NCBI GenBank assembly: GCA_965234725.1
Contig: CBDDUX010000063.1
Span: 15,281 to 79,280 of the forward strand
Direction: 5' to 3'
DNA from: Thermoplasmatota archaeon
Lineage (GTDB): Archaea; Thermoplasmatota; Penumbrarchaeia; Penumbrarchaeales; Penumbrarchaeaceae
Length of the DNA stretch: 64,000 nucleotides
Of this stretch, positions 30,825-52,964 are shown piece by piece (positions within the stretch are counted from its first letter, which is position 1; each line of letters opens with the position of its first letter). The notes under the pieces are model-generated. The model made no database searches. It was given only the letters and a program-made list of their open reading frames with translations, and was not told where the DNA came from. Made by a program: the position numbers and the translations under genes.

Positions 30825-30906
30825 TAAATTCTAACAACAAGTTCAAATCCGGCTCCACCCAGAATACTATCATTAAATGAGATGTAGTTACATCGATAGT
30901 ATAATA

Positions 30907-30922
30907 GGCGCCGGGAGCCGGA
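30907..30922 (-). repeat. Direct copy of tRNA-Ser 3' end (16 bp)
   Basis: GGCGCCGGGAGCCGGA identical to 31020-31035. Confidence 0.9.
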
Positions 30923-31018
30923 CATTCGTAAAAAAGTAAACCCAAGTGATTCTGATCACTTTTTTACTTGCCAGTGATTAATTATTGATTACACGGCTCC
31001 CTTTGATTAGAAAATAAA

Positions 31019-31103
31019 TGGCGCCGGGAGCCGGATTTGAACCGACAAGGGTTGCCCCAGCGGTTTTCGAGACCGCCGCCGTACCAGGTTGAGCCATCCC
31101 GGC
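31019..31103 (-). tRNA. tRNA-Ser(CGA), CCA encoded
   Basis: GCCGGGA/TCCCGGC acceptor stem, anticodon arm GCGGT-CTCGAAA-ACCGC, long variable arm, GGTTCAAATCC T arm; 85 nt. Confidence 0.96.
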
Positions 31104-31522
31104 GTTTAGATTTGCGAATGCACCAGAAACGGCTCAACCTGGTTGACCCGAAGGGTCATTATACCAGGTCGGAGTGTCGAAGGCACTCCCATCCGTGAAC
31201 GGAATTCCCGAAGGGAATTGGGTTCTGAGCTATCCCGGCGTTTAGATTTGCGAATGCACCAGAAACGGCTCAACCTGGTTGACCCGAAGGGTCATTATAC
31301 CAGGTCGGAGTGTCGAAGGCACTCCCATCCGTGAACGGAATTCCCGAAGGGAATTGGGTTCTGAGCTATCCCGGCGTTTAGAATTGCGAATGCACCAGAA
31401 ATAGCTCAACCTGGTTGACCCGTAGGGTCATTTTACCAGGTCGGAGTGTCGAAGACACTCCCATCCGTGAACGGAATTCCCGAAGGGAATTGGGTTCTGA
31501 GCCATCCCGGCGTTTAGAATTG
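31090..31522. repeat. Tandem array of 136-bp hairpin-rich units, each containing the tRNA-Ser 5' 14 nt
   Basis: Units start at 31090, 31226, 31362 plus a 25-bp partial at 31498; 1 difference between units 1 and 2, 6 between units 2 and 3. Confidence 0.97.
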
Positions 31523-31563
31523 AATGAAATTTGCTACGGCGGGTAAGGGGATGAAGTTAAAGG

Positions 31564-31580
31564 GTTTAAAAAGGGTTTTG
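31564..31580 (-). promoter_or_regulatory. Candidate TATA/BRE for the tRNA-Ser locus, upstream of the whole array
   Basis: Minus strand CAAAACCCTTTTTAAAC, about 55 nt upstream of the outermost tRNA 5' fragment; no TATA-like run seen inside the units. Confidence 0.45.
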
Positions 31581-31709
31581 GTCAGGTTCGGCCCTACCTC
31601 CATTAATATTCTGGACCTCCCGAGGATAAAACAATACTATGCTCAATATATTTCTGTCCTTAGTAAACAATATTAACATGGATCAAGTTCCCATCACTGG
31701 GTGTGAACA

Positions 31710-31922
31710 ATGAAAGGTGGATACGTCATCATGGGGATATTCCTCATGGCAACCTCATTTTAATTTCCACTTGGATATCTGATACTTGATCTACTATCAT
31801 TGGGTATTCTTACCGTATTGACACTAGGATTGGATTGGGTTTGCTGCTGTGGATTGAATTCACTTCTCTTCATTATCGGCATGGTTCTCTTTATCGTCGG
31901 TCTTGTAAAAGGTAAGGATTGA
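31710..31922 (+). pseudogene. Small membrane protein interrupted by an in-frame TAA
   Basis: ATG 31710, TAA at 31761-31763, hydrophobic frame continues to TGA 31920-31922. Confidence 0.55.
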
Positions 31923-31950
31923 GGATCAAAATACAGACGTTCTCTTCACT

Positions 31951-32286
31951 TTATGCATACATCATTTCATCGTCATGTTCATCCTTCATCAGGATCTCTT
32001 TCTTCTTCTTACGATCCCTATCCTTGGATTTGTGCTTTACAGCCTTCCTCTGGGTCTCGTCACGACCAAGGAACGTGAAATCGAACCTGTTCATCCTGAT
32101 GAACATCTTGTCAGGGAGCCTTTCTAACTTTATCCATCCCCTTGCCTCCATGCTTTTCAATGTCCTTGCCACATCCCTCGGAGACAAACCAGTCCTTTCG
32201 ATCACTTCTCTGTCATCGATAGGATATCTCTCAAGGATCACCCTCAGGATCTTTGCCTCTATGGACTTGGAATTCACCTGGACCAT
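31951..32286 (-). CDS. Small winged-helix DNA-binding protein
   Basis: GAGGGTGA RBS; EVIERTGLSPRDVARTLKSMEARGWI HTH; basic/acidic tail. Confidence 0.75.
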   Translation of the reverse strand: MVQVNSKSIEAKILRVILERYPIDDREVIERTGLSPRDVARTLKSMEARGWIKLERLPDKMFIRMNRFDFTFLGRDETQRKAVKHKSKDRDRKKKKEILMKDEHDDEMMYA

Positions 32287-32290
32287 ACTG

Positions 32291-33478
32291 TCACCCTCCC
32301 TCAATTGAGAAAGGACCTTTGATAACATCAAGGGGAGCATTGGTCTTGATAATGGTGGGTGAGAACCTGCTTCTTGACCATTTGTGTCCAAACCTCTCGA
32401 TGAATTTTGTTATGGTCTCTATTGATGGGGGAGAGGTCTTGTAATAGCTGGCAGTCTCGTTGATGTCGAAACCTCCAGGAGGAAGGGTCTCTTCGGTGAT
32501 AGCATACCTGAGAATCCTATCTATTGACCTCTTGCTTGCTATCCAATCACCCAGACGATCCTCAAGAACTGACCTGCATTCTTCACAGAATTCTATGTCT
32601 GCAAGGGAGCCGGTCCAGACAGGTCCCATCAATTCCCCTCCGATGATATTCCTGAGAAGCTCATGTGGACTTGCAATAACCTTCGGAGGACCTGGAGGAT
32701 CGTTAATGAGCCATCCTACCGAATCAAGGCTCAGATCAGCCTTTTTCGCACCTCTATCAACTCGAAGATATCCTCTTAAGAAATGATCTGATGAATAAAA
32801 CAGCAGAGGATGGATGGAGATCTCGAAGGATGCCGCCAAACGGGCAATATACCCGAGAAGGACCCGGCAGCCCATTTCCTGCATGAAATCGGTCCTTCCG
32901 ACTTCCACTCCATATCTTCTCCTGGCCACCCGAGACACAGATCCGGTCAGGGCGGCAGTATCAGTAGCAGTTACAGCAAGTATGCCACCCTTTCTAAGGG
33001 AAAGGAGTGAATTCTGCAAGAATGGGACCGGACTGCCATATGGGTCCACATCGATGTAATGGAATCTGCGAGTCCCGCAAAATCCATTCAGGTCTCCCCA
33101 ATGGAAAGCAACTCCCACACCGTTCTTTGTAGCTAGGTTCCTTGCACTTTCTATCGAATCACCTTTCAGATCCACTCCGGTTATTGAAAGGTCAAGATCT
33201 TTGACACCGAGCTCCATAGCGAACCTTACGGCCCTTATTCCAGAGCCAGTGAGGCCGTCCAGGATATCGATGATACCACTATCCCCGAATCTTCCGGTGT
33301 CAATGAGGGTCTGCATGACAACAACAGAGAGATCTCGGTTTTGGACCATTGCAGGATTGTAGAATACTGGCGCTTTCGAACCAGGACCTTTGCTTCCTCC
33401 TGTAGGTGGAGCAATCAGTTCCACCAAACCCTCTTTCCGAGAATCTGCAGTACCGTTCGATCCGGATACATCTGCCAT
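32291..33478 (-). CDS. trm1: tRNA (guanine-26-N2)-dimethyltransferase
   Basis: VFYNPAMVQNRD, GSGIRAVR, DVDPYGSP, TATD. Confidence 0.92.
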   Translation of the reverse strand: MADVSGSNGTADSRKEGLVELIAPPTGGSKGPGSKAPVFYNPAMVQNRDLSVVVMQTLIDTGRFGDSGIIDILDGLTGSGIRAVRFAMELGVKDLDLSITGVDLKGDSIESARNLATKNGVGVAFHWGDLNGFCGTRRFHYIDVDPYGSPVPFLQNSLLSLRKGGILAVTATDTAALTGSVSRVARRRYGVEVGRTDFMQEMGCRVLLGYIARLAASFEISIHPLLFYSSDHFLRGYLRVDRGAKKADLSLDSVGWLINDPPGPPKVIASPHELLRNIIGGELMGPVWTGSLADIEFCEECRSVLEDRLGDWIASKRSIDRILRYAITEETLPPGGFDINETASYYKTSPPSIETITKFIERFGHKWSRSRFSPTIIKTNAPLDVIKGPFSIEGG

Positions 33479-33566
33479 GTGGTGTTATCGAATGTATGGT
33501 TGATAACCTTTACATCGAAACATTGAATATGTATGATCAAATGGCATCTGTGCAGAAGGAATCCAC

Positions 33567-34379
33567 ATGAGCAATATGACATCGAATGGGTCTTCCGGGA
33601 CCGAAGAGGGACCAAAGGGAAAGATAGGCCACACAATAGCGGTAATGAGCGGAAAGGGAGGGGTGGGAAAATCCACCATCGCAACGAACTTGGCAGTCTC
33701 ATTATCAAGGAAGGGAAAGAAGATTGGAATAATCGATGCAGACCTGCATGGGCCGGATATTCCGAAAATGCTCGGACTTGAGGGAGCATTTCCAACAGCG
33801 GATGAAGATGGGAAGATGAATCCAATAATCGTAAACCCCACGCTTTCAGCGATATCTATGGGATTTCTTCTGGAATCGGATGACCAGCCGGTCATCTGGA
33901 GAGGACCTCTTAAGATGGGAGCAATAAAGCAGTTCATTAATGATGTGAACTGGGGCGACCTCGATTTCCTAATAATAGATCTACCTCCGGGGACAGGTGA
34001 TGAAGCGCTTTCCGTCGCTCAGTTGATCCCTGAGAACTCCAACGCGATCATCGTTACCACCCCCCAAGAAGTAGCACTCCTCGATTCAAGGAAAGCTATC
34101 AACTTCGCAAAGAAGCTGGATATGAAAGTATTGGGTGTGGTTGAGAATATGTCAGGAATGGTCTGTCCTCACTGCGGGGAAAGTATCGACCTCTTCGGAA
34201 GGGGTGGAGGAAAGAGAGCCGCGAAAGAACTGGATGTGCCATTTTTGGGTGATGTACCCATCATTCCATCCATGGTCGAGTCAGGAGATAGAGGGAAACC
34301 AGCTGTCTTGGACCAAGGTATTGCATCCACCTCATTGGAGAGGATCGCCGTAGCCGTCCTTGAGAACATAGAGAATTGA
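33567..34379 (+). CDS. Mrp/NBP35 Fe-S cluster carrier ATPase
   Basis: [29 protein letters not shown]. Confidence 0.94.
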
Positions 34380-34380
34380 T

Positions 34381-34692
34381 CTAAGCGTACTCTCTCCATG
34401 TGTTCTTACACTTGGTGCAACGATAAAACCTGGTGGTTGCCTCATCAGCTGACCTTGTCTGCCTTAGATGCCAGTAAGCCCCTATGTTACCACATTTGGG
34501 ACACATGACACTATCATCTATAGGCATGGTATCCAGGTCCTCGAATACGGGTACATCACTGAGATCCTCTTCAAGCTGGGTCCTTACCGGGACCTCAACC
34601 GAACCGTCTATTGGTTTATCGAACCCGCATCGAGGGCATAACAATCTCTCTCCTTCCGGTCTCAGAAGTGATTTGCAGCTTGGACAGAACAT
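34381..34692 (-). CDS. tfs: Transcription factor S (RNAP cleavage factor)
   Basis: MFCPSC...CPRC; CPKC...QTRSADEATTRFYRCTKC. Confidence 0.93.
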   Translation of the reverse strand: MFCPSCKSLLRPEGERLLCPRCGFDKPIDGSVEVPVRTQLEEDLSDVPVFEDLDTMPIDDSVMCPKCGNIGAYWHLRQTRSADEATTRFYRCTKCKNTWREYA

Positions 34693-34827
34693 GGGTGACA
34701 CTCCGATTGTATGCTTAAGTCCGATGGATGTTTTGGATAAATACTTTTTCCAACCAAGGAATACTGGTTCCAATACGATAAAATATCAGTATACTGATGA
34801 ATGTGACCACACAACGGGGATCGGATC

Positions 34828-35025
34828 ATGACAGATTCTAGCGGGTATGTTACCTGTCCAATTTGCGGGAAGGGAATGCTTCTTCCGGTCATGATTGGAG
34901 CGGGAGAGGACAGGGATGTCAAATACAGATGCACGGAACCATCCTGCGGGATAAGGTTCGATAGACACGGATATGAACGGTTCGACGAATCCGTCCAGGA
35001 ATGGAAAAGAGAGGAGGCGGGATAG
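34828..35025 (+). CDS. Small zinc-ribbon protein
   Basis: CPICG...CTEPSC; 65 aa; plausible RBS. Confidence 0.65.
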   Translation: MTDSSGYVTCPICGKGMLLPVMIGAGEDRDVKYRCTEPSCGIRFDRHGYERFDESVQEWKREEAG

Positions 35026-35026
35026 A

Positions 35027-35260
35027 CTGTTCTTCCAAGATCCAGTATTGGAAACCCATGTCCTATCGGATCAGAAACCGATCCTGAAGAGGACAGGGAT
35101 ACTCTGCTCCCACTGCCATAAGGAGATCAGAGGGAAACTCCACAATCTGGGGAACCGGTTCTATGACGATTACTGCTGGTCTCTGAGGTATATCCTCGAA
35201 GCACAGGAATCCGAGATGGAGAGATACCAGGAAATGCGGAAGAAGATGGACAAAGGATAG
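35027..35260 (+). CDS. Small putative zinc-binding protein (start uncertain: CTG 35027 or TTG 35048)
   Basis: CSHC...DDYC motif, coiled C-terminus; AGGAGG at 35012-35017. Confidence 0.5.
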   Translation: MFFQDPVLETHVLSDQKPILKRTGILCSHCHKEIRGKLHNLGNRFYDDYCWSLRYILEAQESEMERYQEMRKKMDKG

Positions 35261-35347
35261 AACTGACATGTTCCTCATGGCCAATTGTTTTATATCTCCC
35301 TTCCATTGTTTCAGAAATATGGTCGGGATCGAAGGTAAGGTGCTGAC

Positions 35348-35875
35348 ATGAAGGTTGTAATAGAGAATATGATCGCTTCATGTGCCGTGGAGGGTGACCT
35401 CAATATTGCCGAGGTTGGAGCGGATCTCCCGGGGGCCAGATATCAACCTGAGGTTTTCAGAGGGGTTACCGTCATAAGAGAGGATCCCGGATACAAATCC
35501 TTCATAATGGAAGATGGGACCATCAAGTTCCATGGACTGACATCGGAGGAGGGCTTGAACGATGCGCTCAAGGACCTCCTATCGGAACCTAGCTTGAAGG
35601 GAGTTCGGTTAAAAGACCCTTTAAGCATTCAGGAGATAATAGCATCAGTTGACCTAGGTGGACCAGTGGATGCTAAATTGATATACGAAGAGTTCAAGGA
35701 TGACGGTGTGATCTACGATCCGTCTGAACTCCCGGGATTCATCCTCAGTGTCGGGAATTCAGGGATCGAGGTACTCATTTTCCCGGAGGGGAAGATCATT
35801 ACAAGAGGGGCCAAGGACATTATGAACGCCGTATCCTCCCTCCAGATGGTACATGGAAGGATATCAGAGAGGTGA
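35348..35875 (+). CDS. Divergent TATA-binding-protein-fold protein
   Basis: Two TBP repeats: ENMIAS..YQPEVFRG..GTI and QEIIAS..YDPSELPG..LIFPEGKIITRGAK. Confidence 0.82.
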   Translation: MKVVIENMIASCAVEGDLNIAEVGADLPGARYQPEVFRGVTVIREDPGYKSFIMEDGTIKFHGLTSEEGLNDALKDLLSEPSLKGVRLKDPLSIQEIIASVDLGGPVDAKLIYEEFKDDGVIYDPSELPGFILSVGNSGIEVLIFPEGKIITRGAKDIMNAVSSLQMVHGRISER

Positions 35876-35882
35876 TCACCCC

Positions 35883-36740
35883 GTGATCAAGGGTCTTCCG
35901 GTGCTAGATGCCCATATCCACCTGGACCCAAAGGGAACTCCTGTTGAGGCTGTTACCAGGTTCAAAGAGGCAGGAGGATCACATCTTATTGTTGTTCATA
36001 AACCATACCATCACCTCAGTGAGACGACATCAGAAGAATATGAAAGGTCCTTCCAGACGACTATCGAGATGTGTGATCTTGCCAGGAGGAATGATGTCTT
36101 AGCCTGGTGTGTCGTCGGTCCATACCCCGGAAGTCTGCCCTATCTTGCAAAAAAAGTAGGTCTGGAGGAAGCGGAAAGTATCCAGATGACTGCCCTTGAA
36201 ACAGCCTTCGATCTTGTGGATGAAGGAACTGTGTTGGGGATCGGTGAAGTGGGAAGGGTACATTTCATGGTGGATGATGAGACTCAAAACGCTTGTGACA
36301 GGGTCCTTAAAAAGGCGATGAAAGGAGCATCTGTAAGGAGCTGCCCGGTGATCCTTCATACTGAATCACCCGGAGATAATCCGGACCTATACCGGCATAT
36401 TGCGGAACTTGCCGATCTTGCCGGTCTCCCTAGACACAGGGTCGTTAAACACTACTCCGGTTGGGAGGGAGCGGTACCTGAGATTGGGCTGGGCATATCG
36501 ATCTCGATGCAGGCCAGGAAGAAGAACATTGAGGTCGCATTGGAAAAGGGGCTTGACTTTCTCCTTGAGACCGATTATATAGATGAAAAGGAGAGACCGG
36601 ATGTTGTGATGCCACCCGATACCGTTCCGAAAAAGATATCCTGGGCTTACAGAAAAGGAATTATCGACCTAGAAATTCACCGAAGATTGATGGTGGACAT
36701 CCCCAGGGAAGTCCTTGGTATAGAAACAAAGGAGGATTGA
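35883..36740 (+). CDS. TatD-family metallohydrolase
   Basis: DAHIH, GIGEVGR, LHTE, VKHY, LETD; GAGGTGA RBS before GTG. Confidence 0.88.
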   Translation: MIKGLPVLDAHIHLDPKGTPVEAVTRFKEAGGSHLIVVHKPYHHLSETTSEEYERSFQTTIEMCDLARRNDVLAWCVVGPYPGSLPYLAKKVGLEEAESIQMTALETAFDLVDEGTVLGIGEVGRVHFMVDDETQNACDRVLKKAMKGASVRSCPVILHTESPGDNPDLYRHIAELADLAGLPRHRVVKHYSGWEGAVPEIGLGISISMQARKKNIEVALEKGLDFLLETDYIDEKERPDVVMPPDTVPKKISWAYRKGIIDLEIHRRLMVDIPREVLGIETKED

Positions 36741-36884
36741 GCGGTTCTCCCAAGCAGATATACTTTTCCTGAAAAGCCAATCAATTTTTGTCTGGCCATA
36801 AGCAAATAATAAATACCATTCGAACGTTTTGAATTTAGAGTCTTCATCTTGCAGGTGAAGTGATTAATAAACAGGGGGCCAGAC

Positions 36885-39800: not shown

Positions 39801-41591
39801 GATGACAATACCGTAAGAAGTGTGAAATACATCAACCCAGACTCCAACATCGCTGAACAGATAAAGGGAGTCTCCATGATGGATGTTCCAAACGACGGTG
39901 GCGGTGTCCTCACACTATCATGGTTCAGGACATTCGCACAGAACTTCTGGCAGTACAACGTCTATTTCAGCGATGAGCCGATCATGGACATCAGCACCCT
40001 TGATCCAATATCAATGATCACAAACAAGCAGAAGACCGACCTGTTGATAGAGGAATACGATGGTGATCCACTTGTTGACGGAACTGATTATTACGCAGCT
40101 GTAACCATAGTCGACTGGGACCTCGAGGAGAACCTCTTCGTGGACGATAATAATTCGGCATCGGCCCAATCGATCAACCAGTCCGATTTCGAGGCTCCCG
40201 GGACCTATCCTGGTAACGTGAAGCAATCAGGGGATCTGACAAATACCGAATTCACCGTCTCCTGGGACCCCATTTCCATCGATCAGATACCAGATTTCAG
40301 CCATTACCTGGTCACGGTATCAGGACCCAAGGGTACTGATAAGTTTATTGTCGAGGGAGGAATTGGAACATCTTCTTTATTGGTAGACAGGTTGACCAGG
40401 GGAACAAAGTACTATGTCAACGTCTCCATAGTTGACGATAACGGAAACTTCGGACCCGGATCACCATCTATCGAGATCACAACCGCTGGAGCCGACCAAC
40501 CTCCAATGGTTGTTAAGATAACGGTCACCATTGGGGAAGATCTCTACAATCTCAACAATACGGAGGAGGTCGATGTCGACCTGAATGATTATTCAGTGAT
40601 CTATTTCACCGGAGAGGGTAGTGATGATTATACTGTCAGTTCCAGACTTCTCTATTCCTGGAATTTAACACTGCCCTCCGGAGAGTCTGTGGAGAAGACA
40701 TCATACGCATTCGATCTGGACCTCTCTGAAACAGGAACATATTCCATCAAGTTGGTCGTCACTGACCAGGCTGGGATGGAATCCGAGGATTTCATTATCA
40801 CAATAAAGGCAGAAAAACCCGGTGAGACCACGACCACACCCATATTCCTTATCATAATCATTGTAATCGTGGCAATCATCCTTGCTATTGTGGTCGTTCT
40901 GTTCGTTCTATTCTCTGGAAGCAGGTCCCAGAGGAGTCAGAAGCTTGAAGAATACAAGGATAGAAGACAGAACATCGAGTCTATGGAACCCATCTATGCC
41001 AACCTTCCCACCTGGACATGTGACTGCGGGACGACCTCTGTCACACTCATCGAGAACGCCTACTGTAATTCCTGTTATCAATCCCACGAGGCCGTTCCGA
41101 TAGATGGTATCGATACATACCTCATGGAACACGATCTGGTCCTTGCGGAGATGAAGATCGTCGTTACACCTGGCTGGCAGGGACAGGATGTTGCAAAGAC
41201 CGATGCGGCAATGGACCTGGATAGGAGGAAGAAGAGGGCCATGGATGCTCTTAACGAGGAGTATGCCCCATGGCTTCAGGGTACAGAATACGAGAAGGAA
41301 CTCGAGAACCTGCCAAAGGAAGGCATGGAAGAACCAGAAGGGCCCAAAGTGGATAAACTCCATCACGATGGAGCTATCATTCCAGGTCAGATGCCTCCAT
41401 CCGGACCCATCCAGCCCCAGGTAGGAGGACCTATACAGCCTCAGGTGGGAGGAGGACCTATAAGACCAATGGTGGGTGGTCAACCAGGACCTGTTAGACC
41501 TCCAATGGTTCAGCAGCAAGGAGCTCCAGGACCCAGACCTCCGATGCCTCAGGTTGGTCTCAATCAACAAAAGCCACCCCAAAATCCCTGA
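36885..41591 (+). CDS. Integrin-alpha-like FG-GAP propeller + FN3 + PKD surface protein with TM, cytoplasmic Cys motif and Pro/Gln tail
   Basis: FGW...GDxNGDG.DDLIVGAP repeats; FN3-like W/Y patterns; TM; CDC...CNSC; GGPIQPQV repeats. Confidence 0.82.
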   Translation: MVNESSSHKWRTSLFGKMMIIGVCGILMGAIPMTAAVREDLQQVYDRKITTSGALTGWNLTKIGDINGDGSVDYGMGSPGENKAYVFFGPLANNFNPASTTTGWVISGPSNSDFGWDIQGIGNYDGDQYDDLIVGAPGVDKAYIWKGRSSGVSTSYTSANLQINGTDGEMFGHSVCGLNYDGDEGWFAAVGAPMNIHFLEDVGDYQSGAVFMFNLTAFSTFPSKYMESSNANFTYTGDVYSGRFGHIVRNVGDLNYDSIDDLGMGDPFYSPSGYTDKGAFYFQFGKNVLAEPPQKSTSDLDGIISGRNQSKFGWSAKGLEDVGGSFEDDIMIGAPYEGEGKAFLFFGVNGSFPSKDLAGTDTPDNEFNGTNPGDLFGWSFDRTMIAGTTFALSISAPGYDNGTKVDAGAIYSFWSWSGQESADNAKSAFIGETADEMLGYSLCEVNYTLSNTGPVRVIGILASSPFYGSTNGGRIQIFKRNQLPELSPVNINFKHGNPSTIFTITVEYSDPDNDAPAYVKVDFFYDQSGDNLAKTVTLNRVFSDTDPFSVGVTYESMTTLPNSIRRDSPNANLYLIGYTRAVRGSISMVFSGVIVPGPEVDGIIPSAADNLNVIGWDTLPEEDLIEGSFKISWEWPEDDDGTLSSEYSRKVSKLEIRYFQGNVTMTNSNWDNAVSYITFSSSTELKNPFANQQLLIGAEDETIKPFLYYSVAMRAYDEEDNEGNVSATLTTQAYWRRPEIPGPCESVDIFDYKGPDNMGDDGGKLLVQFTPPNLAVPMDISYYEVFVTEAEGFDLDNLSDYNKIDWEPDMIITKVNEEAFYNTTFILDSYHGGDLLDGGYYYVAIVPVNWLDQHSRIVTWSDPEIEVKIINDNLSAIARIKGVSGTSINGEAKIRVTWTPTTDTKFTRYEIYGQSFSYTNIDDAVKLATITERGLTEFIVGDISGTPISQAHLYFFTVLVMDHNDHIDTAIDDDNTVRSVKYINPDSNIAEQIKGVSMMDVPNDGGGVLTLSWFRTFAQNFWQYNVYFSDEPIMDISTLDPISMITNKQKTDLLIEEYDGDPLVDGTDYYAAVTIVDWDLEENLFVDDNNSASAQSINQSDFEAPGTYPGNVKQSGDLTNTEFTVSWDPISIDQIPDFSHYLVTVSGPKGTDKFIVEGGIGTSSLLVDRLTRGTKYYVNVSIVDDNGNFGPGSPSIEITTAGADQPPMVVKITVTIGEDLYNLNNTEEVDVDLNDYSVIYFTGEGSDDYTVSSRLLYSWNLTLPSGESVEKTSYAFDLDLSETGTYSIKLVVTDQAGMESEDFIITIKAEKPGETTTTPIFLIIIIVIVAIILAIVVVLFVLFSGSRSQRSQKLEEYKDRRQNIESMEPIYANLPTWTCDCGTTSVTLIENAYCNSCYQSHEAVPIDGIDTYLMEHDLVLAEMKIVVTPGWQGQDVAKTDAAMDLDRRKKRAMDALNEEYAPWLQGTEYEKELENLPKEGMEEPEGPKVDKLHHDGAIIPGQMPPSGPIQPQVGGPIQPQVGGGPIRPMVGGQPGPVRPPMVQQQGAPGPRPPMPQVGLNQQKPPQNP

Positions 41592-41608
41592 AAACTATCT
41601 AAATTGCT

Positions 41609-41640
41609 GCGGGGAGTTACCCCTCCCCGCCATTTTTCTC
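41609..41640 (+). terminator. Hairpin terminator
   Basis: GCGGGGAG/CTCCCCGC stem followed by CATTTTTCTC, 18 nt after the stop. Confidence 0.65.
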
Positions 41641-41688
41641 TTAACTTATCTATATTAGAAGGCAATCCTAGAGCGAGGAATGTCCTAA

Positions 41689-42792: not shown

Positions 42793-42859
42793 AATTGAAC
42801 CTTTCAACCATAAAGATTATCATATCTTCTTCAGTAGTTCCATTGAAGGAAGGGGACAC

Positions 42860-43810
42860 ATGGAAGAAGACGACAGGATCTATGATGTGATCGTCATTGG
42901 AGGAGGACCAGCCGGTACCTCCGCTGCTATTTATACCTCGAGAGGAAAGTTGGATACGATCGTTATCGATAAGGACATCGGACAGGGAGCCATGGGTGGA
43001 GACCACCTTGTTGCCAACTATCCTGGATTCCCTGAGCCAATGAAGGCCGAGGAGATCCTCAAGAAGATGAGAGAGCAAGCTGAGAACCTGGGAACGGAGT
43101 TCTTACAGGACAAGATCATCTATACGGATTTCAGGAAGGAAATGAAGGAGATCTCCACGCCATCCAGGAAGATCAAGGGAAGGACCATCGTACTTGCTAC
43201 GGGTTCAATGGGAAGGGAACCTTCTATTGAAGGAGAAGGGATGTTCATTGGAAGAGGGGTTGCATACTGTGCAATCTGTGACGGAGCTTATTTCGAGGGG
43301 AAAAGCGTAGCTGTGATAGGTCAGGTGGACAGGGTCCTGGAAGAGCTGGAAATGATCGAGAAATATGCCAGTAAGATATATTTCCTGTCTCCAACGGGAA
43401 AGATATCCGATAAGGACCTCCATAAGCTATCAGGTATCAAGGGTCTTTCAACACTTCCGGGACATAAGATCAAAAAGATACTCGGATCAATGAAGTTCGA
43501 GGGCCTTTTACTTCAGGGTCCTGACGGGGAAGAGAGACTGGAGGTGGATGGGGTCTTCGTATATCTTCAGGGGAATAATCCGGTTACCGATTACCTTGTA
43601 GATACTGTCGAAAAAGGTGACAATGGCTGCCTCAAGGTTGATGAGATATCGATGGAGACCTCCATACCCGGGATCTATGCTGTAGGAGATATCAGATGCA
43701 AACCGCATAGACAGATATCCATCGCTGTCTCAGATGGATGCAGGGCTGCCCTTTCTGCTGACAGATTCATAAAAGGAAAGGAAAAAGCAGGTTCCCAGTG
43801 GGGGACCTGA
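42860..43810 (+). CDS. trxB: Thioredoxin reductase-like flavoprotein
   Basis: GGGPAG, NYPG, CAICDG, TSIPGIYAVGD; second dinucleotide motif atypical (GQVDRVLEE). Confidence 0.85.
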   Translation: MEEDDRIYDVIVIGGGPAGTSAAIYTSRGKLDTIVIDKDIGQGAMGGDHLVANYPGFPEPMKAEEILKKMREQAENLGTEFLQDKIIYTDFRKEMKEISTPSRKIKGRTIVLATGSMGREPSIEGEGMFIGRGVAYCAICDGAYFEGKSVAVIGQVDRVLEELEMIEKYASKIYFLSPTGKISDKDLHKLSGIKGLSTLPGHKIKKILGSMKFEGLLLQGPDGEERLEVDGVFVYLQGNNPVTDYLVDTVEKGDNGCLKVDEISMETSIPGIYAVGDIRCKPHRQISIAVSDGCRAALSADRFIKGKEKAGSQWGT

Positions 43811-43900
43811 TATCGATAAAGAGCCCACATAACTGTACTTGCACCAATAACAATTAAAAAGGGAAAGGACCCTGATTGATAATAGCGGGGGTAATTCCTA

Positions 43901-46900: not shown

Positions 46901-47071
46901 GGTCTTCTGTCAACTGGCACTTTCTTGTTCTTCTACATCAACAAGGGAAAGGATGAATCAGTTGAATTGGAGAGCAAAGAAGATGATTACCTCGTTCAAA
47001 GAGGAGATGATCCGGATGAATACATCAAGCACGAGGGTAATATCGAAGAGGCTAAAAGGGACCTATGGTGA
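43901..47071 (+). CDS. Surface protein: right-handed beta-helix (NosD-like), FN3, Ig-like repeats, carboxypeptidase-regulatory-like domain, TM
   Basis: NNxF repeats, GNFWSD, DxAGN and IDxxxP Ig repeats, C-terminal TM. Confidence 0.82.
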   Translation: MRGIVVMVLVFLLSFPINIVSGEDEGRERVIQEFSESPPIGSFPPTTIDGDDQLATFISNNNFTGNGTEEDPFIIGDRTFDVTNSSFGLYISNITTFCFRIIDCSFENNDPNNLSILPTGLIIKKCKNININNCSFRGNENGLLEDMNSNIKIINSTFEDLSGHGILGFSGTKGIDFDGCSFTNCLNGINMTVSKFNIRNSTFRNNREYGIFSRSILRDSTVFDSIFLENEIGIEIIDHTYFEAKCRISNNLFAFNNGYGIYSIEDSRIFNNTFIENNNQSGQLMNGSSQALGFYDSPYWEFKGRGNFWSDHNLTDSNYDGETDNRYRLDDIYSTSYDEHPLSYVPQIGIPDFRIFTGNSEVEIEIINWTEFNFFDHIGFRIYRSEDLINWTHVTDLPLPITEYTDKTVWNDHTYYYKVTCLGKLQGYDWVGEGFRGPILNETPNGKASEITFLFPVHGMVYGVEDILVTWTVVDDQDRLESVEISVNGLDWQPYYNNSFLMKGLTNGTYSFGIKARDEAGNTAEKFISFTIDMDDPIVEILNPLPGSYITETPFKIEWRIFDPTTEIMGMSLIVDGSSVSVDLGDESLTLDLKDGSHRINLEAWDINLRRSGAYSNFIVDTVPPMINIISPKWNEVAGPGSLDLEYEVSDITSGVDYVLYRIDNGNWHQAKSETEIDTSKLNHGEHKLELLAEDIAGNIGYDHIRFMIDRRSPSITIYHPVNGSRINRLIDIRMDWEAEDKESGLDLLRIDFDNTSNHMIIEDPEIGHCFLYFSEAGPHTIKVTLFDLAGNSDTELIDIFIDITAPFIRSVNPHGNDVPTSSYFTILFSELMDETRTVISISGVNSHGYFTGPMYNLFPDGDLETDTRYTLLVRGYDLAGNELTLQEVSFTTWKKGTVHGTVREKDGDPIPHVFVNVTGEELEMETDLGGNFQFDLVPGSYEIRFFLTDYKSYKIEVNVEPDGDTIMGDILLERIGSSDENTKGSDGRWIVLFLLLVIGGLLSTGTFLFFYINKGKDESVELESKEDDYLVQRGDDPDEYIKHEGNIEEAKRDLW

Positions 47072-47073
47072 GA

Positions 47074-47748
47074 TCACTCGTATTCCACATACATATCAGT
47101 AATGAGGACCGTATTGACGGGCCTGTCATTTGAATCTGTCTGGGTCTCAGCGATCCTGTCTACTACATCCATTCCACTTACAACCATTCCGAATACGGTA
47201 TGTTCACCATCGAGATGGTGTGGTTCATTCTGACCCTCACCCTGGACAATGAAGAACTGGGACCCTGACATCCTGGTCTCTCCACCTCTCTTTGCCATGG
47301 AAATCGCTCCCCTGACATGGGTCAGACCGTTATCGGTCTCAGGTTCAATGGTGTAACCTGGTCCGCCTGTTCCATCACCGTTTGGGTCACCGCCCTGTAA
47401 CATGAAATCCGGGATGACCCTGTGGAATGTGAGTCCATCATAGAAACCCTGCTTACAGAGTTTCTCCATATTGGCACATGTGATTGGGGCCTTGTCCTCG
47501 TTCAGCGCTATTTTGATGGTACCATATCCGCTGACCTTGATATAGAGGAAGGGATCACCCTGGTCTACGATCTGTTCATCCAGGAACCTTCCGTTATCAT
47601 CCGGGAGGTCCTCTGTAGTGAAGATGAAGAAATTGGCGAATACAAGACCCAATACAAGGATCAGTATCGCTCCTCCAAGGATCATCAGTGGTATCAGATC
47701 GTTGCCACCTTGTCGGTCCTTCAAGATCATTCTCTTCATTATAATCAC
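47074..47748 (-). CDS. Membrane-anchored cyclophilin-type PPIase
   Basis: [37 protein letters not shown]-terminal TM. Confidence 0.92.
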
Positions 47749-48650
47749 CTCACGATAGAGTTCATTATCACCTTGAATACCAAGGTTCTTCCAGAGACCT
47801 CGCGGTTGAAATCAATTGTTATGATCCCTCCCACGTTTGTGACGATCCCTGTTGGTGGTTCCTGTCCCTGATTGGCCTCAGTAGCCTTCTTGGCCCATAC
47901 CGGGTCAAGGAACATGATATCCGGGAATAATACCGGTTGGGTAGTATCTATCCCATTGATATCGTGTGAAAGTGTTATCACATTCCTGGAACTGGATATA
48001 TCAGAAACGGTCACATTCCAGTTGAACTTCCCATAGACACCCTCATAAGCAGGCTGGTTAAGGATAGTAACGGTATCAGGGTCCTGCTCGATTATCTTGA
48101 CTTCCCAGTCCCAGAAGGGATGCATGAAGGATTCCTGAGAAGCAGGATCGATATTTGGGAAGCGAACCTTGAATTCATCTGCAGGGATATCCTCTCTTAA
48201 GGGAATAGAGGTCTTTGAAGATATGTTGATTTTGAGCTCAGGAAGAACATCACCGTATCCTTCTTTGGGTGGAACTGTTATGTATTTGATGGATCCCACT
48301 GTCATCCCGAGGACACCTTCATCAAATCCCTTGATCATCTGGCCGGAACCGATCGTGAATGTGAGATCATCATATGTGTCCCTGACCGTGAAAGCAGAAG
48401 CCTTGGGAATGGACTCGTTACGGGCATCTTCTGGTATTGTTGTATCGAACAATGCCCCTAACTCTCCCCCGGAACCTAGGAAACGACCGGTATAATCAAC
48501 GGATACCTCATCGCCTTCCTTGGCCAAAAGTATCTCATCTTCCTTCTTGTCGTTTGATTCGCGCTCATCCCACCAGGTAAGGAAGGCAAGCCCACCAACC
48601 ATGAATAGAGCAACGACAACGGCCCCGATGCAGAGAGTTTCATCTTTCAT
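47745..48650 (-). CDS. Membrane-anchored FKBP-type (SlyD-like) PPIase with long insert
   Basis: [42 protein letters not shown]. Confidence 0.88.
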
Positions 48651-48677
48651 TTTCAAACACCTTGAATTGAGCGAGGT

Positions 48678-49133
48678 TCAGGGATATAACCATACCTCGT
48701 CTATCTTCTCCATGTCCATTATCTCATCTTCATTGAAGAATATCGAGATCTCACGGTCAGCGCTATCTTTGGAATCAGAGCCGTGAACGACATTCCTTGA
48801 AAGATCTATTGCAAGATCTCCCCTGATCGTTCCGGGAGGACTTTCCCTGGGATCGGTCTTTCCCATCATCTTTCTCATTCCTTCGATGACATTGTCCCCT
48901 TCGATCACCATGGCGACCACAGGTCCCGAAGTGATGAATGAAACTAGGTCATTGAAAAAGGGTTTGCCTACATGCTCTTCGTAATGCTTTGAGGCGGTCC
49001 CCTCATCCACCCTCAACATTTTGAGGGCGGAGACCTTGTATCCTTTGTCCTCGATCCTATCTATGATATTACCCACAAGCGATCTCTGGACGCCGTCGGG
49101 TTTGATCATGAAATAGGTCCTCTCCCGTGCCAA
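48678..49133 (-). CDS. ndk: Nucleoside diphosphate kinase
   Basis: ERTYFMIKPDG, PGTIRGD, NVVHGSD; TTG start with AGGAGTGA RBS. Confidence 0.96.
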   Translation of the reverse strand: MARERTYFMIKPDGVQRSLVGNIIDRIEDKGYKVSALKMLRVDEGTASKHYEEHVGKPFFNDLVSFITSGPVVAMVIEGDNVIEGMRKMMGKTDPRESPPGTIRGDLAIDLSRNVVHGSDSKDSADREISIFFNEDEIMDMEKIDEVWLYP

Positions 49134-49137
49134 ATAA

Positions 49138-49320
49138 TCACTCCTTGACATGGTATTTGGACCATCTGGTCCTTCTGGGTACCCTTTTGAGCTGGATCTG
49201 GTTCTTGTAGCATTTGGTCGAGCAGAAGAAGAATACCTTTGCATCCTTCTTCACATACATCCTTCCCGTACCGGGTTCTATCTTTGCTCCACAAAAGGAG
49301 CAGGTTCTTGCCTCTACCAT
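49138..49320 (-). CDS. rpl24e: 50S ribosomal protein L24e
   Basis: CSFCG..IEPGTG.MYV...FCSTKC. Confidence 0.96.
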
Positions 49321-49324
49321 TTGC

Positions 49325-49534
49325 TCACCTCACGCTGAGCTTCCTAGCTTCCCTTGCGGATTCCCTGAGCAGGAGTATATCTCCGATCCTGATAGGGCCC
49401 ATGGCATTCCTGGCGATTATCCTTCCCTTGTCCTTGCCGTCGAGTATCCTGACCTTGACCTGTGTGGCCTCTCCGGCCATCCCGGTCTTTCCGATCAATT
49501 CAACGACCTCGGCGGGAATTCCATCAACTGGCAA
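49325..49534 (-). CDS. rps28e: 30S ribosomal protein S28e
   Basis: [34 protein letters not shown]. Confidence 0.96.
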
Positions 49535-49546
49535 TTGGGTCCCTCC

Positions 49547-49921
49547 TCACTCCTTCTTGTTCAATTCTTGAAGCCTTTTGGAGATGGTCTCCACAAGGAC
49601 CTTTCCCTTTCCGGGTTGAATGATCGCCACTGCCGTTGTGGGGACCTTCAACGAGGCTGTGTTGCCGAGCTCCTGCCTGCTTGGCACATAAGCAAAGGGA
49701 ATATTCTTCTCGTTACACAGGTACGGGACATGCATGAGGATCTCTGGAGGGGTCGTGTCCTCGGCCAGGATCACCAGCCGGGCCTTGCCCCTTTCCACAA
49801 CTTTGGTCACCTCATTGGCACCTTTCCTGATCTTACCTGTGTCCCTGGCAAGCTCAACGGCCTCGTATACAGATTCGACAAGGTCCTTGGGCATCTCGAA
49901 CTTCACGAAACTTGCTGGCAT
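49547..49921 (-). CDS. rpl7ae: 50S ribosomal protein L7Ae
   Basis: [37 protein letters not shown]. Confidence 0.96.
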
Positions 49922-50122
49922 GTGATTACCTCCTTCGGGCCTATGGAATATTTCTCCATGGCCTTCATCATTCATTGGCTCTCGGTCAGAGCAATCTCAG
50001 TATAAAAGCCTCCTATAAATACGTTTCCGGTTCTGGACAAGGAGTCCTTCTAGTATGGTCAGAGTATCAATGGAGAGGAAAAACGACTATATTTTTATTA
50101 CCTTGTAAAGGAAATCCCATCC

Positions 50123-50734
50123 ATGGCCGGTGAAGGTTTGAATGAGGATGAGAAGCTTCTCAAGGAAAGAGAGCTGACCCTTCGCAATGATAAAAGACGG
50201 CAGGCCGAGTGGTATGAATCACTCAACCTCTATGCCGAGGCAATGAAGGTCTTTGAATCGATCCAGGACCAGGAAAATATTGTTCGGCTAAGGGAAAAGA
50301 TGAGGAAGGATTATGGAAAGAATGCCAGATCTCTTGAGGACAAGGGAAGGTTCCAGGATGCGGCAAATCTATACTACCTCATCGGGGACAATTCAGGTGT
50401 CAGAAGGATGAAGGAATTGAAGCCGGACCTCGTAATACTCTATGATTCCGAAAACGGAGGGCTGGCAAAGCTCGCAAGCACTCTGGATGAGATTGGACCG
50501 GATGATGATGGTGAAGATCTCTTCTCCAAACCCAATGTCGAGGAAGATGGAGATGAGGTGGAAGAAAAACCGAAGAAAAGGGATATTCCCATCAAGAAAC
50601 CCGCCAAGAAGAAGGAGATCCTGGTACCAACCCCCAGTGAAAAAAGGATCAGATTCTGCCCATACTGCGGTGAAGAACTGACAACCAAGAAAGAACCAAG
50701 GTTCTGCCCCTTCTGTGGCGAGGACATATCTTGA
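50123..50734 (+). CDS. Hypothetical protein with helical repeats and C-terminal zinc ribbon
   Basis: FCPYCG...FCPFCG. Confidence 0.75.
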   Translation: MAGEGLNEDEKLLKERELTLRNDKRRQAEWYESLNLYAEAMKVFESIQDQENIVRLREKMRKDYGKNARSLEDKGRFQDAANLYYLIGDNSGVRRMKELKPDLVILYDSENGGLAKLASTLDEIGPDDDGEDLFSKPNVEEDGDEVEEKPKKRDIPIKKPAKKKEILVPTPSEKRIRFCPYCGEELTTKKEPRFCPFCGEDIS

Positions 50735-51769
50735 TCAATCCCGCTTCCTTAGAGATGGGAGACCAGGAAGCTTCCTCTCTCCCGGTCTTAGCATCTCTGG
50801 CAGATTCTCCCGGCGCATCCTATCGATCATTTCCAGCAGAGTGTGTGTGTGTGAGAATCCATCATATGAGAATATCATCAGGATCACCGCTATGAAAGCG
50901 ATTATTGAACCTACCAGGAACCCAAATGAGAATACAGATAGGAAAGCGGATAGAAGTGCAAGTGAGAAGAATTCCTTCCTGTAAACAAAGAAGGCTGAAA
51001 TCAGGGCCATGATCGAGGCAAGGAACATCAGTGAAGCTGCGACATTGGTAATGAACCCGGAATATGTCTTGGTCTTGAATTGATGAACGAGAATGGGAAG
51101 TTCATCATCTTCAGATCCCTTTTCCATGGGAACATCGATCACATTGGGAGATCCTTTCCTGATTGTAATTCCGCTCTTTACGGTCTTATATCCATCCTTG
51201 TATATGGTCAGGTCCATTTCTCCGGCAACAATATTCTCTATCACAACAAGGCCCTGATCATTGGACATGCCTGAGAAATTCCCTGAACCACTGGACAGTG
51301 AGACATTCACATTATCCAATGCTCTTCCAGAATCAGCATCTATGACCCAGACCGATAGCGTTACCAGACTGGTGGGGCTCTTCTCCTCCAGATCATAGAT
51401 TGAGAAGGTGCCAATGATGGTCGAGAATGAGGAGACCATCCCCAGGATACCGACCATTAAAAGAAGAACGAATATCAATCTCATTCTCCTTTTATGAGGC
51501 AGGTCTAGGACAGTTGACACTTCGGAAGCAATAACAACCTTCTTTTCCGGTTCGATCATAAATGAGGTCGCTTTTTTCGGATGGAAATGTCTGCCATTTA
51601 TCTTGATCGACTCGGACCCACTGTTCCTTTTCTTGATCTCTATATCGAGCTCTTTCTGACATGCGGGGCAGTCAAGTGAGAATGTCCCCTCATCAACGTT
51701 TGGGGGGAGCCTCATCAAGATCTCCTCACCGCATTCGAAACATTCAGCCTCAAGGGTCCTACGGGGCAG
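50735..51769 (-). CDS. Membrane protein: N-terminal Zn ribbon, carboxypeptidase-regulatory-like domain, several TMs; probable CTG start
   Basis: In-frame extension adds CFEC pairing with CPAC; AGGAGG 7 nt upstream of CTG 51769. Confidence 0.72.
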   Translation of the reverse strand: MPRRTLEAECFECGEEILMRLPPNVDEGTFSLDCPACQKELDIEIKKRNSGSESIKINGRHFHPKKATSFMIEPEKKVVIASEVSTVLDLPHKRRMRLIFVLLLMVGILGMVSSFSTIIGTFSIYDLEEKSPTSLVTLSVWVIDADSGRALDNVNVSLSSGSGNFSGMSNDQGLVVIENIVAGEMDLTIYKDGYKTVKSGITIRKGSPNVIDVPMEKGSEDDELPILVHQFKTKTYSGFITNVAASLMFLASIMALISAFFVYRKEFFSLALLSAFLSVFSFGFLVGSIIAFIAVILMIFSYDGFSHTHTLLEMIDRMRRENLPEMLRPGERKLPGLPSLRKRD

Positions 51770-51892
51770 CTACTTTCCTCCTGTTATCTAAAAATGTGGG
51801 CTTGGTTAATTAAACCATGTGGTGTTTTCACCTATTTATTAGGACCTGTCCATTGGAAATGTTGAAATCCATTGATATAGTTGTTGAAATAG

Positions 51893-52597
51893 ATGAGAGA
51901 GGTGGAAAACGGTAACATTGAGGGGTTACAAACACCCCGGCTGTCCAGAGGTCAGCATCTCTTCAGGAGGATGATCCACCTGATCTCTGGATCAGTGGTT
52001 GTCTATTACCTGTTTCCGGACAGCGTCCTCTTTCTACCAAAGGAGATCGTACTGATCCTTGTCATCGGTCTGCTACCTCTTATCATAGAATATATCAGAT
52101 TGTCCAGAGGTGCTATCATTTTCGGTCAGAGGCCACATGAATATGAAGCTGTCGGGTCATATGCATGGTCCCTCTGGGCATCCCTATTCATAATCCTGAT
52201 ATTCCCTCAATCAATAGCGGTTCCTGTCATCTTGATATATTCCTTTGCTGACCCCGTCATGTCCGAACTCAGGGTATGGAAAAAATGGTCGGCTTTCAGC
52301 TTCGGTTTCCTGTTCATATGGATCATGTTCATGGTTTTCGGATTCAATATTGTCCTTGCTGCCTATGGGGCCCTCTTCATGATCATAGGAGAATCCACAG
52401 AACTGAAGGGTATATTGAGGGTCCGGCCTGAGCTGGCCAAATTGTATGAGGTCGAAAATGATATCAAGAAATGGATATTCAAGTTCAAGACGGATGATGA
52501 TGGAACGACCCAGGTTATCCCGGCCCTCTTTCTGGGACTTGCCTATCTATTCTCTCCCTCTTCATTTCCAGGACCGTGGTTGTTCCCACTTTTCTAG
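51893..52597 (+). CDS. Dolichol/phytol kinase-like membrane protein
   Basis: RRMIHL, RPHE...GSY, ADPxxSELR and DDD motifs, multiple TMs. Confidence 0.65.
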   Translation: MREVENGNIEGLQTPRLSRGQHLFRRMIHLISGSVVVYYLFPDSVLFLPKEIVLILVIGLLPLIIEYIRLSRGAIIFGQRPHEYEAVGSYAWSLWASLFIILIFPQSIAVPVILIYSFADPVMSELRVWKKWSAFSFGFLFIWIMFMVFGFNIVLAAYGALFMIIGESTELKGILRVRPELAKLYEVENDIKKWIFKFKTDDDGTTQVIPALFLGLAYLFSPSSFPGPWLFPLF

Positions 52598-52632
52598 TAT
52601 TAACATCAGGATATGGGGATCCCAACACAAAA

Positions 52633-52905
52633 CACCATTTCATGAAATGAGTTGAAATTTTTAAAAATGGTGCAGGCGCCGGGACATGTGAATAATCTAA
52701 GATTATTCACGTGTGTGGAAAATGTTCCATTTTCCAAACATTTGATTCCGCAAAATCAAAGATTTTGCTCAGGTTGAGCATTATCTATCGGCGCTTTAGT
52801 AAAACCAATGCTCAACCACCCAAGGGTTCAAATCCCTCACGTCGATTCCAGAGCACCATTTCATGAAATGAGTTGAAATTTTTAAAAATGGTGCAGGCGC
52901 CGGGA
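52633..52905. repeat. 52-bp perfect direct repeat (tRNA-Gly 3' 17 nt plus 35 nt trailer) enclosing a hairpin-rich insert
   Basis: 52633-52684 identical to 52854-52905; period 221 bp. Confidence 0.95.
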
Positions 52906-52964
52906 TTTGAACCCGGGTTAAAGGCTTGGAAGGCCCTTGTCATAGCCAACTAGACTACGCCTGC
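52889..52964 (-). tRNA. tRNA-Gly(TCC), CCA encoded
   Basis: GCAGGCG/CGCCTGC acceptor stem, loop CTTCCAA, GGGTTCAAATCCC T arm; 76 nt. Confidence 0.96.

Follow-up and report, generated by a model that had tools for sequence, protein, structure and literature searches.

The window, as we call the 64-kb stretch of archaeal DNA analysed here, contains two transfer RNA (tRNA) genes, tRNA-Ser and tRNA-Gly, and it is the DNA bordering these genes that concerns us. Both genes lie on the minus strand. Next to them are short direct copies of their own ends, small hairpins, and inverted copies of their own arms: the complement of the D-arm upstream of tRNA-Ser, and the complement of the T-arm downstream of both. 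The same design recurs in three independent assemblies of relatives, at tRNA-Ser in the loci L067 and L113 and at tRNA-Gly in the locus L073; the closest relatives fetched are Thermoplasmatota genomes assembled from metagenomes. The window's own genes, including those for TBP, TFS and Trm1, mark it as archaeal. Its G+C content is ~47%, and Pfam scans of its 41 open reading frames (ORFs) of at least 100 amino acids (aa) reveal housekeeping and surface-protein genes. The features around tRNA-Ser, with lengths in nucleotides (nt), are these:

30803-30816, plus strand: 14-nt hairpin arm overlapping the last codons of the TPR-ATPase gene, complementary at 13 of 14 positions to 30847-30860
30841-30856, plus strand: inverted copy of tRNA-Ser positions 62-77 (the anti-T-arm, in module B), a 16-mer match to 31027-31042
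30864-30871 and 30895-30902: the two arms of hairpin B1, which has the distal tRNA-end copy on one side and the inverted copy on the other
30907-30922, minus strand: direct copy of tRNA-Ser positions 69-84, the 16 nt that precede its final A, matching 31020-31035
30923-31018: module A, the 96 nt between tRNA-Ser and the distal copy
31019-31103, minus strand: tRNA-Ser(CGA), intact, with CCA encoded (ARAGORN, Rfam)
31104-31522, minus strand: tandem array upstream of tRNA-Ser, three 136-nt units and a terminal partial unit of 25 nt
31226-31239, 31362-31375 and 31498-31511, minus strand: copies of tRNA-Ser positions 1-14 within the array units
31131-31143, 31267-31279 and 31404-31415: inverted copies of tRNA-Ser positions 9-21, the first two exact 13-mers, the third matching at 12 of 13 positions

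Downstream of tRNA-Ser the order is module A, the direct copy of the tRNA end, hairpin B1 and the inverted copy. The inverted copy complements the T-loop, the 3' strand of the T-stem and the start of the 3' strand of the acceptor stem, and the pairing in module B comes to 9-18 base pairs (bp). Module A contains a hairpin formed by an A-run and a T-run (arms 30928-30937 and 30958-30967) that looks like a two-way terminator, judged by the general rules for terminators and promoters that stand behind all such readings here; it also contains an inverted 8-mer of tRNA-Ser positions 71-78 (30994-31001). The outermost arm, at 30803-30816, joins the end of the TPR-ATPase gene, as a hairpin, to the sequence just past the inverted T-arm copy. 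Read on the other strand, this arm gives a third, degenerate copy of the 3' end of tRNA-Ser; the arm is retained in L067, though its pairing is weaker there.

Upstream of tRNA-Ser the arrangement is a tandem one, with a period of 136 nt and 3.2 copies over 31090-31522. On the tRNA strand it reads A-B-A-B-A-B-A, followed by the remainder of tRNA-Ser. Array block A (25 nt; not to be confused with module A) comprises 11 nt of leader and tRNA-Ser positions 1-14. Block B (111 nt) comprises a 56-nt block of two hairpins followed by tRNA positions 15-22; next come a hairpin whose loop is UUCG or UACG and, last, a stretch complementary to positions 9-21. The 5' pseudo-copy of the tRNA is in this way interrupted for 56 nt, and then resumes with positions 15-22 (ACCTGGTA). 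The units are 94-99% identical to each other, differ at several positions, and fold with z = -4.3. UUCG and UACG loops closed by a C-G pair are stable structures. In the 5' module they are found on the tRNA strand only, both in the window and in L067, and this confinement suggests that the module acts as RNA, probably on the tRNA strand. Directly upstream of tRNA-Ser and on the same strand are a small winged-helix (HTH) gene (31951-32391) and the gene for Trm1, the tRNA G26 dimethyltransferase (32291-33478); the same two genes are likewise directly upstream of tRNA-Ser, on the same strand, in L067 (4229-5900). Between the array and the HTH gene the window has ~430 nt (31523-31950) without counterpart in L067, where the whole tRNA-to-HTH spacer is ~145 nt. 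These ~430 nt include short plus-strand ORFs of 17 and ~41 codons, the longer of which is hydrophobic.

At tRNA-Gly the features all lie on the 3' side:

52628-52684, minus strand: distal copy of the tRNA-Gly 3' end and its downstream flank, matching 52849-52905
52685-52848: hairpin-rich spacer X, downstream of tRNA-Gly (z down to -8.5)
52684-52698/52700-52714, 52716-52724/52728-52736, 52750-52757/52761-52768 and 52772-52782/52807-52817: hairpins of spacer X
52824-52836, plus strand: inverted copy of tRNA-Gly positions 51-63, a 13-mer match to 52902-52914
52849-52888, minus strand: proximal trailer of tRNA-Gly
52889-52964, minus strand: tRNA-Gly(UCC), intact, with CCA encoded (ARAGORN, Rfam)

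The distal copy, 52-57 nt long and 221 nt away, consists of 17 nt of tRNA end (52668-52684) and 35-40 nt of trailer, and its flank part includes a palindromic T5/A5 run (52657-52668). The proximal trailer is itself structured: GCACCATTT (52853-52861) is paired to AAATGGTGC (52886-52894), a segment overlapping the 3' end of tRNA-Gly. The inverted copy at 52824-52836 is a self-contained hairpin, T-arm-like when read on the plus strand, and the pairing between direct and inverted copies is weaker here than in Ser module B. The 35-40 nt of duplicated trailer are this locus's own 3' flank, just as the 11 nt of duplicated leader at tRNA-Ser are that locus's own 5' flank. Both match local DNA, an observation that does not favor the mobile element proposed in the preliminary description of the stretch.

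The three direct and three inverted tRNA copies of that description are all where it had located them, and CAT does follow both 3' copies on the plus strand. The spacings of 70 and 72 nt that it gave were not reproduced: edge to edge, the distal end copy and the inverted copy are 50 nt apart at tRNA-Ser, and the inverted copy is 52 nt from the 3' end of tRNA-Gly. To gauge chance, each 400-nt flank was subjected to 2000 dinucleotide shuffles, and the shuffles reaching the observed match were counted. None did so for the inverted 16-mer and the direct 16-mer downstream of tRNA-Ser or for the direct 17-mer downstream of tRNA-Gly, and only one did so for the inverted 13-mer upstream of tRNA-Ser and one for the inverted 13-mer downstream of tRNA-Gly, so that no match is reached in more than 1 of 2000. 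The T-loop motif GTTCRAAWCC has just four occurrences across the 64 kb, one in each tRNA and one in each of the two inverted copies. Hairpins are indeed present in the inserts, as had been described, but hairpin richness is not unique to tRNA flanks: among 15 intergenic regions, the one at 11773-12238, between two giant FG-GAP surface-protein genes, has z ~ -5, a degree of structure equal to that of the tRNA flanks. Among its hairpins are a perfect one of 12 bp with T-runs after it and an A6CCC...GGGT7 hairpin; these two look like two-way terminators, in the same style as the hairpin of Ser module A.

Relatives were found by scanning contigs with a degenerate pattern spanning both tRNA 3' ends. 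The pattern was too general. It yielded at least 121 loci, mostly from Thermoproteota and in 41 of the 121 with only ~300 nt of flank; the source genome was not among the loci returned, while L067, L113 and L073 were. The comparison set consists, then, of three tRNA-Ser loci (window, L067 and L113) and two tRNA-Gly loci (window and L073). As controls we took the 108 tRNAs that ARAGORN finds in the 121 listed loci and the window, with a threshold of at least 11 nt for an inverted copy. A direct and an inverted copy occur together downstream of four of the five tRNAs of this group, as exact matches (window Ser, window Gly, L067 and L113), and the fifth, L073, has the same design in diverged form. 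They occur together at none of the 103 other tRNAs among the loci listed, where the few 13-nt inverted matches are neighbouring tRNA genes; nor was the pattern found at the marine group III tRNA-Gly loci of the control set. Upstream of one marine group III tRNA-Gly (L020, ~3620-3780), a 10-mer identical to tRNA positions 42-51 occurs five times at 36-nt spacing; these repeats are probably part of a repetitive coding region rather than of the present pattern.

L067 shares the gene order of the window: TPR gene, tRNA-Ser, HTH gene, Trm1. Its inverted T-arm copy (15 nt) directly follows the TPR stop codon, and downstream of its tRNA are two tandem units of tRNA-end copy plus module A, the A copies being 96% alike. 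Upstream is a hairpin module in which 15 nt complement tRNA positions 7-21, and no copy of positions 1-14 was found in L067. This anti-D-arm hairpin lies ~30 nt after the HTH stop codon, and so could belong to the 3' end of that mRNA. L113, for which the sequence is 625 nt only, has a different order. Downstream come the tRNA, hairpin B1, an 18-nt inverted copy, a hairpin, the tRNA-end copy and module A; that is, tRNA-B-copy-A in place of the tRNA-A-copy-B of the window and L067. Its HTH gene converges on tRNA-Ser, so that the tRNA is inverted relative to that gene. No single inversion reproduces the L113 arrangement, which disposes of an invertible segment. The 5' copy in L113 covers tRNA-Ser positions 1-22, and a degenerate inverted copy of positions 1-34 matches at 17 of 19 positions over 16-34. 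It spans the junction 22|23, as expected from the earlier proposal that the inverted copy extends across the junction. The idea of an inserted element is not supported by the same loci: L067 has the anti-D module without a 5' duplication, and L113 has its 18-nt anti-T copy behind an intact tRNA end, and so an inverted copy needs no insert.

L073 comes from a G+C-rich genome that has no gene order in common with the window, and yet it keeps the architecture of the window's tRNA-Gly element by element, in the same order: a trailer hairpin with the tRNA 3' end, an inverted-T-arm-like hairpin, a GGGTGG motif, a long hairpin, a short hairpin and an end copy. The second of these has diverged and occupies the same relative place as 52824-52836 in the window. 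There, trailer and tRNA end still pair, through a different sequence, and do so behind the tRNA as well as behind its copy. The end copy matches at 20 of 22 positions and is followed by at least one more degenerate layer. In all, positions 3640-3860 of L073 hold at least two further degenerate tRNA-end copies behind tRNA-Gly, the junction motif GCATCATCACAG followed by TCA.ATCCC, twice, and a hairpin made of T-loop-like sequence and its complement.

Across these loci the boundaries differ. Direct copies start at 68|69 in window Ser and L067, at 64|65 in L113 and at 55|56 in the tRNA-Gly of L073; 5' copies stop in the D-loop region, at 14|15 or 22|23. Two or three layers of copies are present at both tRNAs, and every cassette consists of an end copy, a loop of 17-53 nt and an inverted copy. 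A covariance model of Ser module B matches the hairpins of tRNA plus module A and also the stretch from tRNA-Gly to its inverted copy (20.7 bits, E = 0.008). Because the one model finds both tRNA loci, we regard them as sharing one design. The earlier expectation that the pattern would exceed chance and recur is thus borne out, in three independent assemblies of relatives.

How old the design is can be judged from the TPR gene next to it. The TPR protein is 83% identical between the window and L067, its third codon positions are 45.7% identical, and its 154 four-fold sites are 27.3% identical, which is to say saturated. Over the same divergence, the identity of the window's module A to the two L067 copies is 68-70% (95 nt, 1-2 gap columns), and that of module B is 65% (78 nt). 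Modules that can still be aligned when four-fold sites are saturated are not neutral scars of that age. Being orthologous, in the same order and 65-70% identical at saturation, the cassettes of the window and L067 point to long vertical retention under constraint, and not to recent insertion. Paired positions change together, and the pair is preserved. Both sides have changed in 9 of 35 consensus pairs of the Gly hairpins (window versus L073), in 3 of 21 pairs of Ser module B (window, L067 and L113), and in 3 of 15 pairs of the Ser 5' module. The inverted copies, moreover, track the resident tRNA. The tRNA-Ser genes of the window and L067 differ at 1 of 85 positions, position 16, and both the upstream inverted copy and the 7-mer that partners it show the same change; in L113 the inverted copy bears that genome's own variants at positions 7 and 28. 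Complementarity is therefore kept up, whether by selection, by conversion or by re-copying.

No enzyme that might have made these structures was seen. Pfam detects no integrase, recombinase, transposase, reverse transcriptase (RT) or Cas1 in the 41 window ORFs of at least 100 aa, and no recombinase, transposase, RT or Cas1 in six ORFs of L073. The co-occurring HUH, IS110, RT or integrase gene that had been suggested is absent, as is Cas1, from the window and from DNA within 4 kb of the relatives' loci. No further copies of the inserts or cassettes were found in the 64 kb, and no core common to the inserts beyond tRNA-derived bases. With Rfam 15, only the two tRNAs pass the gathering score, and relaxed searches give chance-level matches. 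A distant-mode search of both 3' regions against a phage and archaeal-virus collection gives only short chance matches. In the literature, subscription journals not covered, we found no account of tRNA genes whose own arms recur beside them as conserved inverted copies.

The remainder of the window offers observations of other kinds. A heliorhodopsin gene is present at 297-1091 (Pfam E = 2e-102). A 318-nt tandem repeat, with two copies and 93% matches, lies at 22032-22653 within an ORF with TSP3-type repeats, and shorter repeats of 24-27 nt are located at 41403-41476, where a 1568-aa ORF comes to its end. At 56405-58030 an ORF combines KaiC-like ATPase and GvpD domains; it adjoins a PIN-domain ORF (55905-56408).

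We tentatively favor the reading that these are long-lived, maintained border structures of tRNA genes, belonging to one Thermoplasmatota lineage, rather than fresh insertions. Upstream of tRNA-Ser, the border would be a hairpin module with a 3' arm that complements positions 7/9-21, the anti-D-arm. Downstream of both tRNAs, it would comprise one to three cassettes, each with a copy of the last 16-22 nt, small hairpins, and an anti-T-arm of 8-18 nt complementary to the T-loop, the T-stem and the acceptor strand. By pairing either with the tRNA end beside it or with the copy of that end, the anti-arm would form a long stem capped by small hairpins. The inverted copies, which are the conserved core of each module, would be the primary feature, kept by selection for pairing and by correction between arms. 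Direct copies and tandem arrays would be secondary, having arisen repeatedly through slippage or unequal crossover at short repeats prone to hairpin formation, and cassettes would be re-ordered cyclically, by duplication and deletion. Where arrays arise in repeats embedded in hairpins, their junctions would fall inside a stretch that has a complement nearby, and so the junction rule would need no guide. This reading would account for the near-identical tandem units peculiar to one lineage (the window's 5' array and the 3' units of L067) and for the duplicated leader and trailer being of local origin. As for their role, the borders may act as leader and trailer structures and as two-way terminators, separating a single-copy tRNA gene from its neighbors. 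That the Gly architecture travels with its tRNA into the L073 genome, where gene order is not shared, also counts in favor of border structures.

Several observations weigh against this. In L067 the best TATA-like box separates the anti-D copy from the tRNA, and tRNA-Gly is directly followed by a T5 run, so that some modules may lie outside the tRNA transcript. The 5' module is upstream of the promoter in L067 and inside the array in the window. Neither folding energies nor G-U counts have a consistent strand bias (10 regions). The A/B swap and tRNA inversion in L113 and the changed place of the 5' module relative to the promoter would each need several extra rearrangements, yet would be simple for a mobile cassette. 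Correction by template switching can mimic compensatory change without function (excerpts of PMC5941160). Finally, the function of the borders is something we infer from the DNA.

A second reading, credible though doubtful, is that of miniature, non-autonomous, integrative cassettes, which insert in the T-loop or D-loop, supply a replacement tRNA end, and depend on a recombinase encoded elsewhere. The inverted copy would then fold with the direct copy as a mimic of the target, or act as a base-pairing guide. Several properties are as expected of such an element. Direct copies start in the T-loop and 5' copies end in the D-loop region; both tRNAs have two or three copy layers; different junctions each have a matching inverted copy; and the cassettes are far more alike than neutral DNA. 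The mobile element of the preliminary description also gains from the variation in module order and copy number, and loses by the want of dispersed copies and the orthologous order retained at saturation: window and L067 agree in both order and position. The uniform layout of end copy, loop and inverted copy resembles a folded single-strand att site, of which integron attC is an example, and two inverted target-like sites are predicted to pair across a short loop. In phage CTX, attP1 and attP2 are inverted target-like sites that fold in single-stranded DNA, imitating the target, and an inverted pair of target-like sites flanks the integrated prophage (excerpts of PMC3442271). As in CTX after integration, direct site copies flank the putative element, with one inverted copy just inside; unlike CTX and integrons, the loci showed neither a recombinase of Xer or IntI type nor a replicon nor cassette ORFs, and the target would be a tRNA loop.

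Against such cassettes stand the absence of an enzyme near any locus and of another copy in the 64 kb, the lack of a common insert core, and the occurrence of inverted copies beside intact tRNA ends where no insert is present. Since each genome offers one target, little element-level selection would be available to explain the constraint. Circles of 113-221 bp, furthermore, are too small for double-stranded recombination. Nor do known elements of this general kind fit. IS200/IS605 elements and their miniature derivatives are small and hairpin-rich, choose targets by base pairing, and insert 3' of a short motif without target duplication. Hairpins are present here too, and both 3' junctions of the window follow TTCAAA; however, L113 and L073 have other junctions, a tRNA-end copy stands at the start of the insert, and there is no TnpA or TnpB, no further copy in the window and no Rfam match. 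Unlike IS110 with its bridge RNA, the loci have no DEDD transposase gene, and their inverted copies are continuous over 13-18 nt and not split guides.

It is unlikely, in our estimation, that the pattern is a functionless by-product of mutation, in which stalled replication at tRNA genes, template switching or slippage, and hairpin-templated correction of arms produce everything seen. Fold-back template switching does yield a layout of direct copy, inverted copy and original; the folds have no strand bias; and there has been recent lineage-specific amplification (window units 94-99%, L067 A copies 96%). Template switching can also preserve perfect inverted repeats (excerpts of PMC5941160), whose short arms stay matched over evolutionary time, as do those described here. 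Unlike those repeats, as far as the excerpts describe them, ours have one arm within a tRNA gene, direct end copies, and conserved unpaired spacers. Four points speak against a by-product: the non-repeated parts of modules A and B are conserved as well (65-70% versus 27% at four-fold sites), the element order behind tRNA-Gly is kept without shared gene order, the spacers are not tRNA-derived, contrary to simple fold-back copying, and the pattern is absent from the 103 other tRNAs among the loci listed.

We give similarly low odds to two more specific ideas: a lineage-specific recombination system that places miniature cassettes without genes in the D- or T-loops of tRNA genes and restores the tRNA, or antisense anti-arm clamps in the tRNA precursor. 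In the first, the inverted target copy carried by the cassette may write the choice of target, as a folded att mimic or as a guide. In the second, the anti-D and anti-T segments may control when a single-copy tRNA folds and is processed.

Decayed scars of integrated viruses or plasmids, that is, attL and attR sites of tyrosine integrases left behind after deletion of the interior, are very improbable. The sites that archaeal integrases use in tRNA genes are the T stem-loop, the 3' end or, in the pTN3 type, the 5' half, and the enzymes rebuild the tRNA; elements can integrate in tandem (excerpts of PMC8371274). A statement that confines integrase duplications at tRNAs to 3' direct repeats is, on this evidence, too narrow. 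The loci described here resemble such sites (same excerpts): a direct tRNA-end repeat bounds the insert beside an intact, rebuilt tRNA, the boundary is in a loop, there are layers, and there are 3' and 5' versions. But the inserts here are only 95-168 nt long, have no genes or gene remnants, and have no integrase nearby. In place of a foreign insert that varies between relatives, modules A and B are 65-70% identical in L067. This constraint between genomes, at saturated neutral sites, argues strongly against scars, as do the compensatory changes in hairpins. The inverted tRNA-arm copy that accompanies each insert would be left unexplained, and there is no similarity, beyond short chance matches, to the phage and archaeal-virus collection. 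A parallel for the 5' side is the tRNA-Thr of Caldiarchaeum, where a 1.9-kb insertion bringing positions 1-27 left a 5' tRNA fragment upstream (excerpts of PMC3293823). In both cases a 5' fragment lies upstream of an intact tRNA and inserted DNA gives a new 5' part. The Caldiarchaeum insert, according to the same excerpts, has an ORF, six genomic places and a foreign composition, whereas the units described here are 136 nt, local and without ORFs, and they include an inverted D-arm copy that is found also in a relative without the duplication. Chance matches or an assembly artefact are hardly credible: tandem repeats can be mis-assembled, but each match is reached in at most 1 of 2000 shuffles, the array units differ, and three independent assemblies are alike.

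Other candidates were tried and rejected. Casposons occur in a lineage within Thermoplasmatota and duplicate a short stretch where a tRNA gene ends on its 3' side (excerpts of PMC6614799 and PMC4779613); here no terminal inverted repeats were seen at the insert ends and no Cas1 or polymerase gene, and the repeats are 16-57 nt, not 14-15 bp, the Gly repeat alone being 52-57 nt. Neither gene is an intron-containing, split or permuted tRNA, since both are continuous (47.7 and 67.6 bits with the Rfam tRNA model) and inspection of the folds revealed no bulge-helix-bulge. A C/D box guide would be expected to give snoRNA-type matches, and none is above chance; no box motifs are conserved among the window, L067 and L113. 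The defining motifs of an H/ACA guide are absent on reading the sequences and folds. A TnpB-type guide RNA, a scaffold with a 17-nt guide at its 3' end, was dropped for want of a TnpB and of an Rfam match. Reverse transcription primed by tRNA was considered because the distal copies can be read as primer-binding sites on the plus strand; there is no RT, and the copies include flank that is not tRNA.

Direct repeats of tRNA ends are normally read as scars of viruses or plasmids. Here such repeats are tiny, gene-less and paired with an inverted copy of a tRNA arm, and they are a warning that not every tRNA fragment should be taken for an att site. If the cassettes are mobile, they would represent a new class of self-targeting miniature elements. 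If they are functional borders, they would amount to an undescribed packaging of single-copy tRNA genes in an uncultured archaeal lineage.

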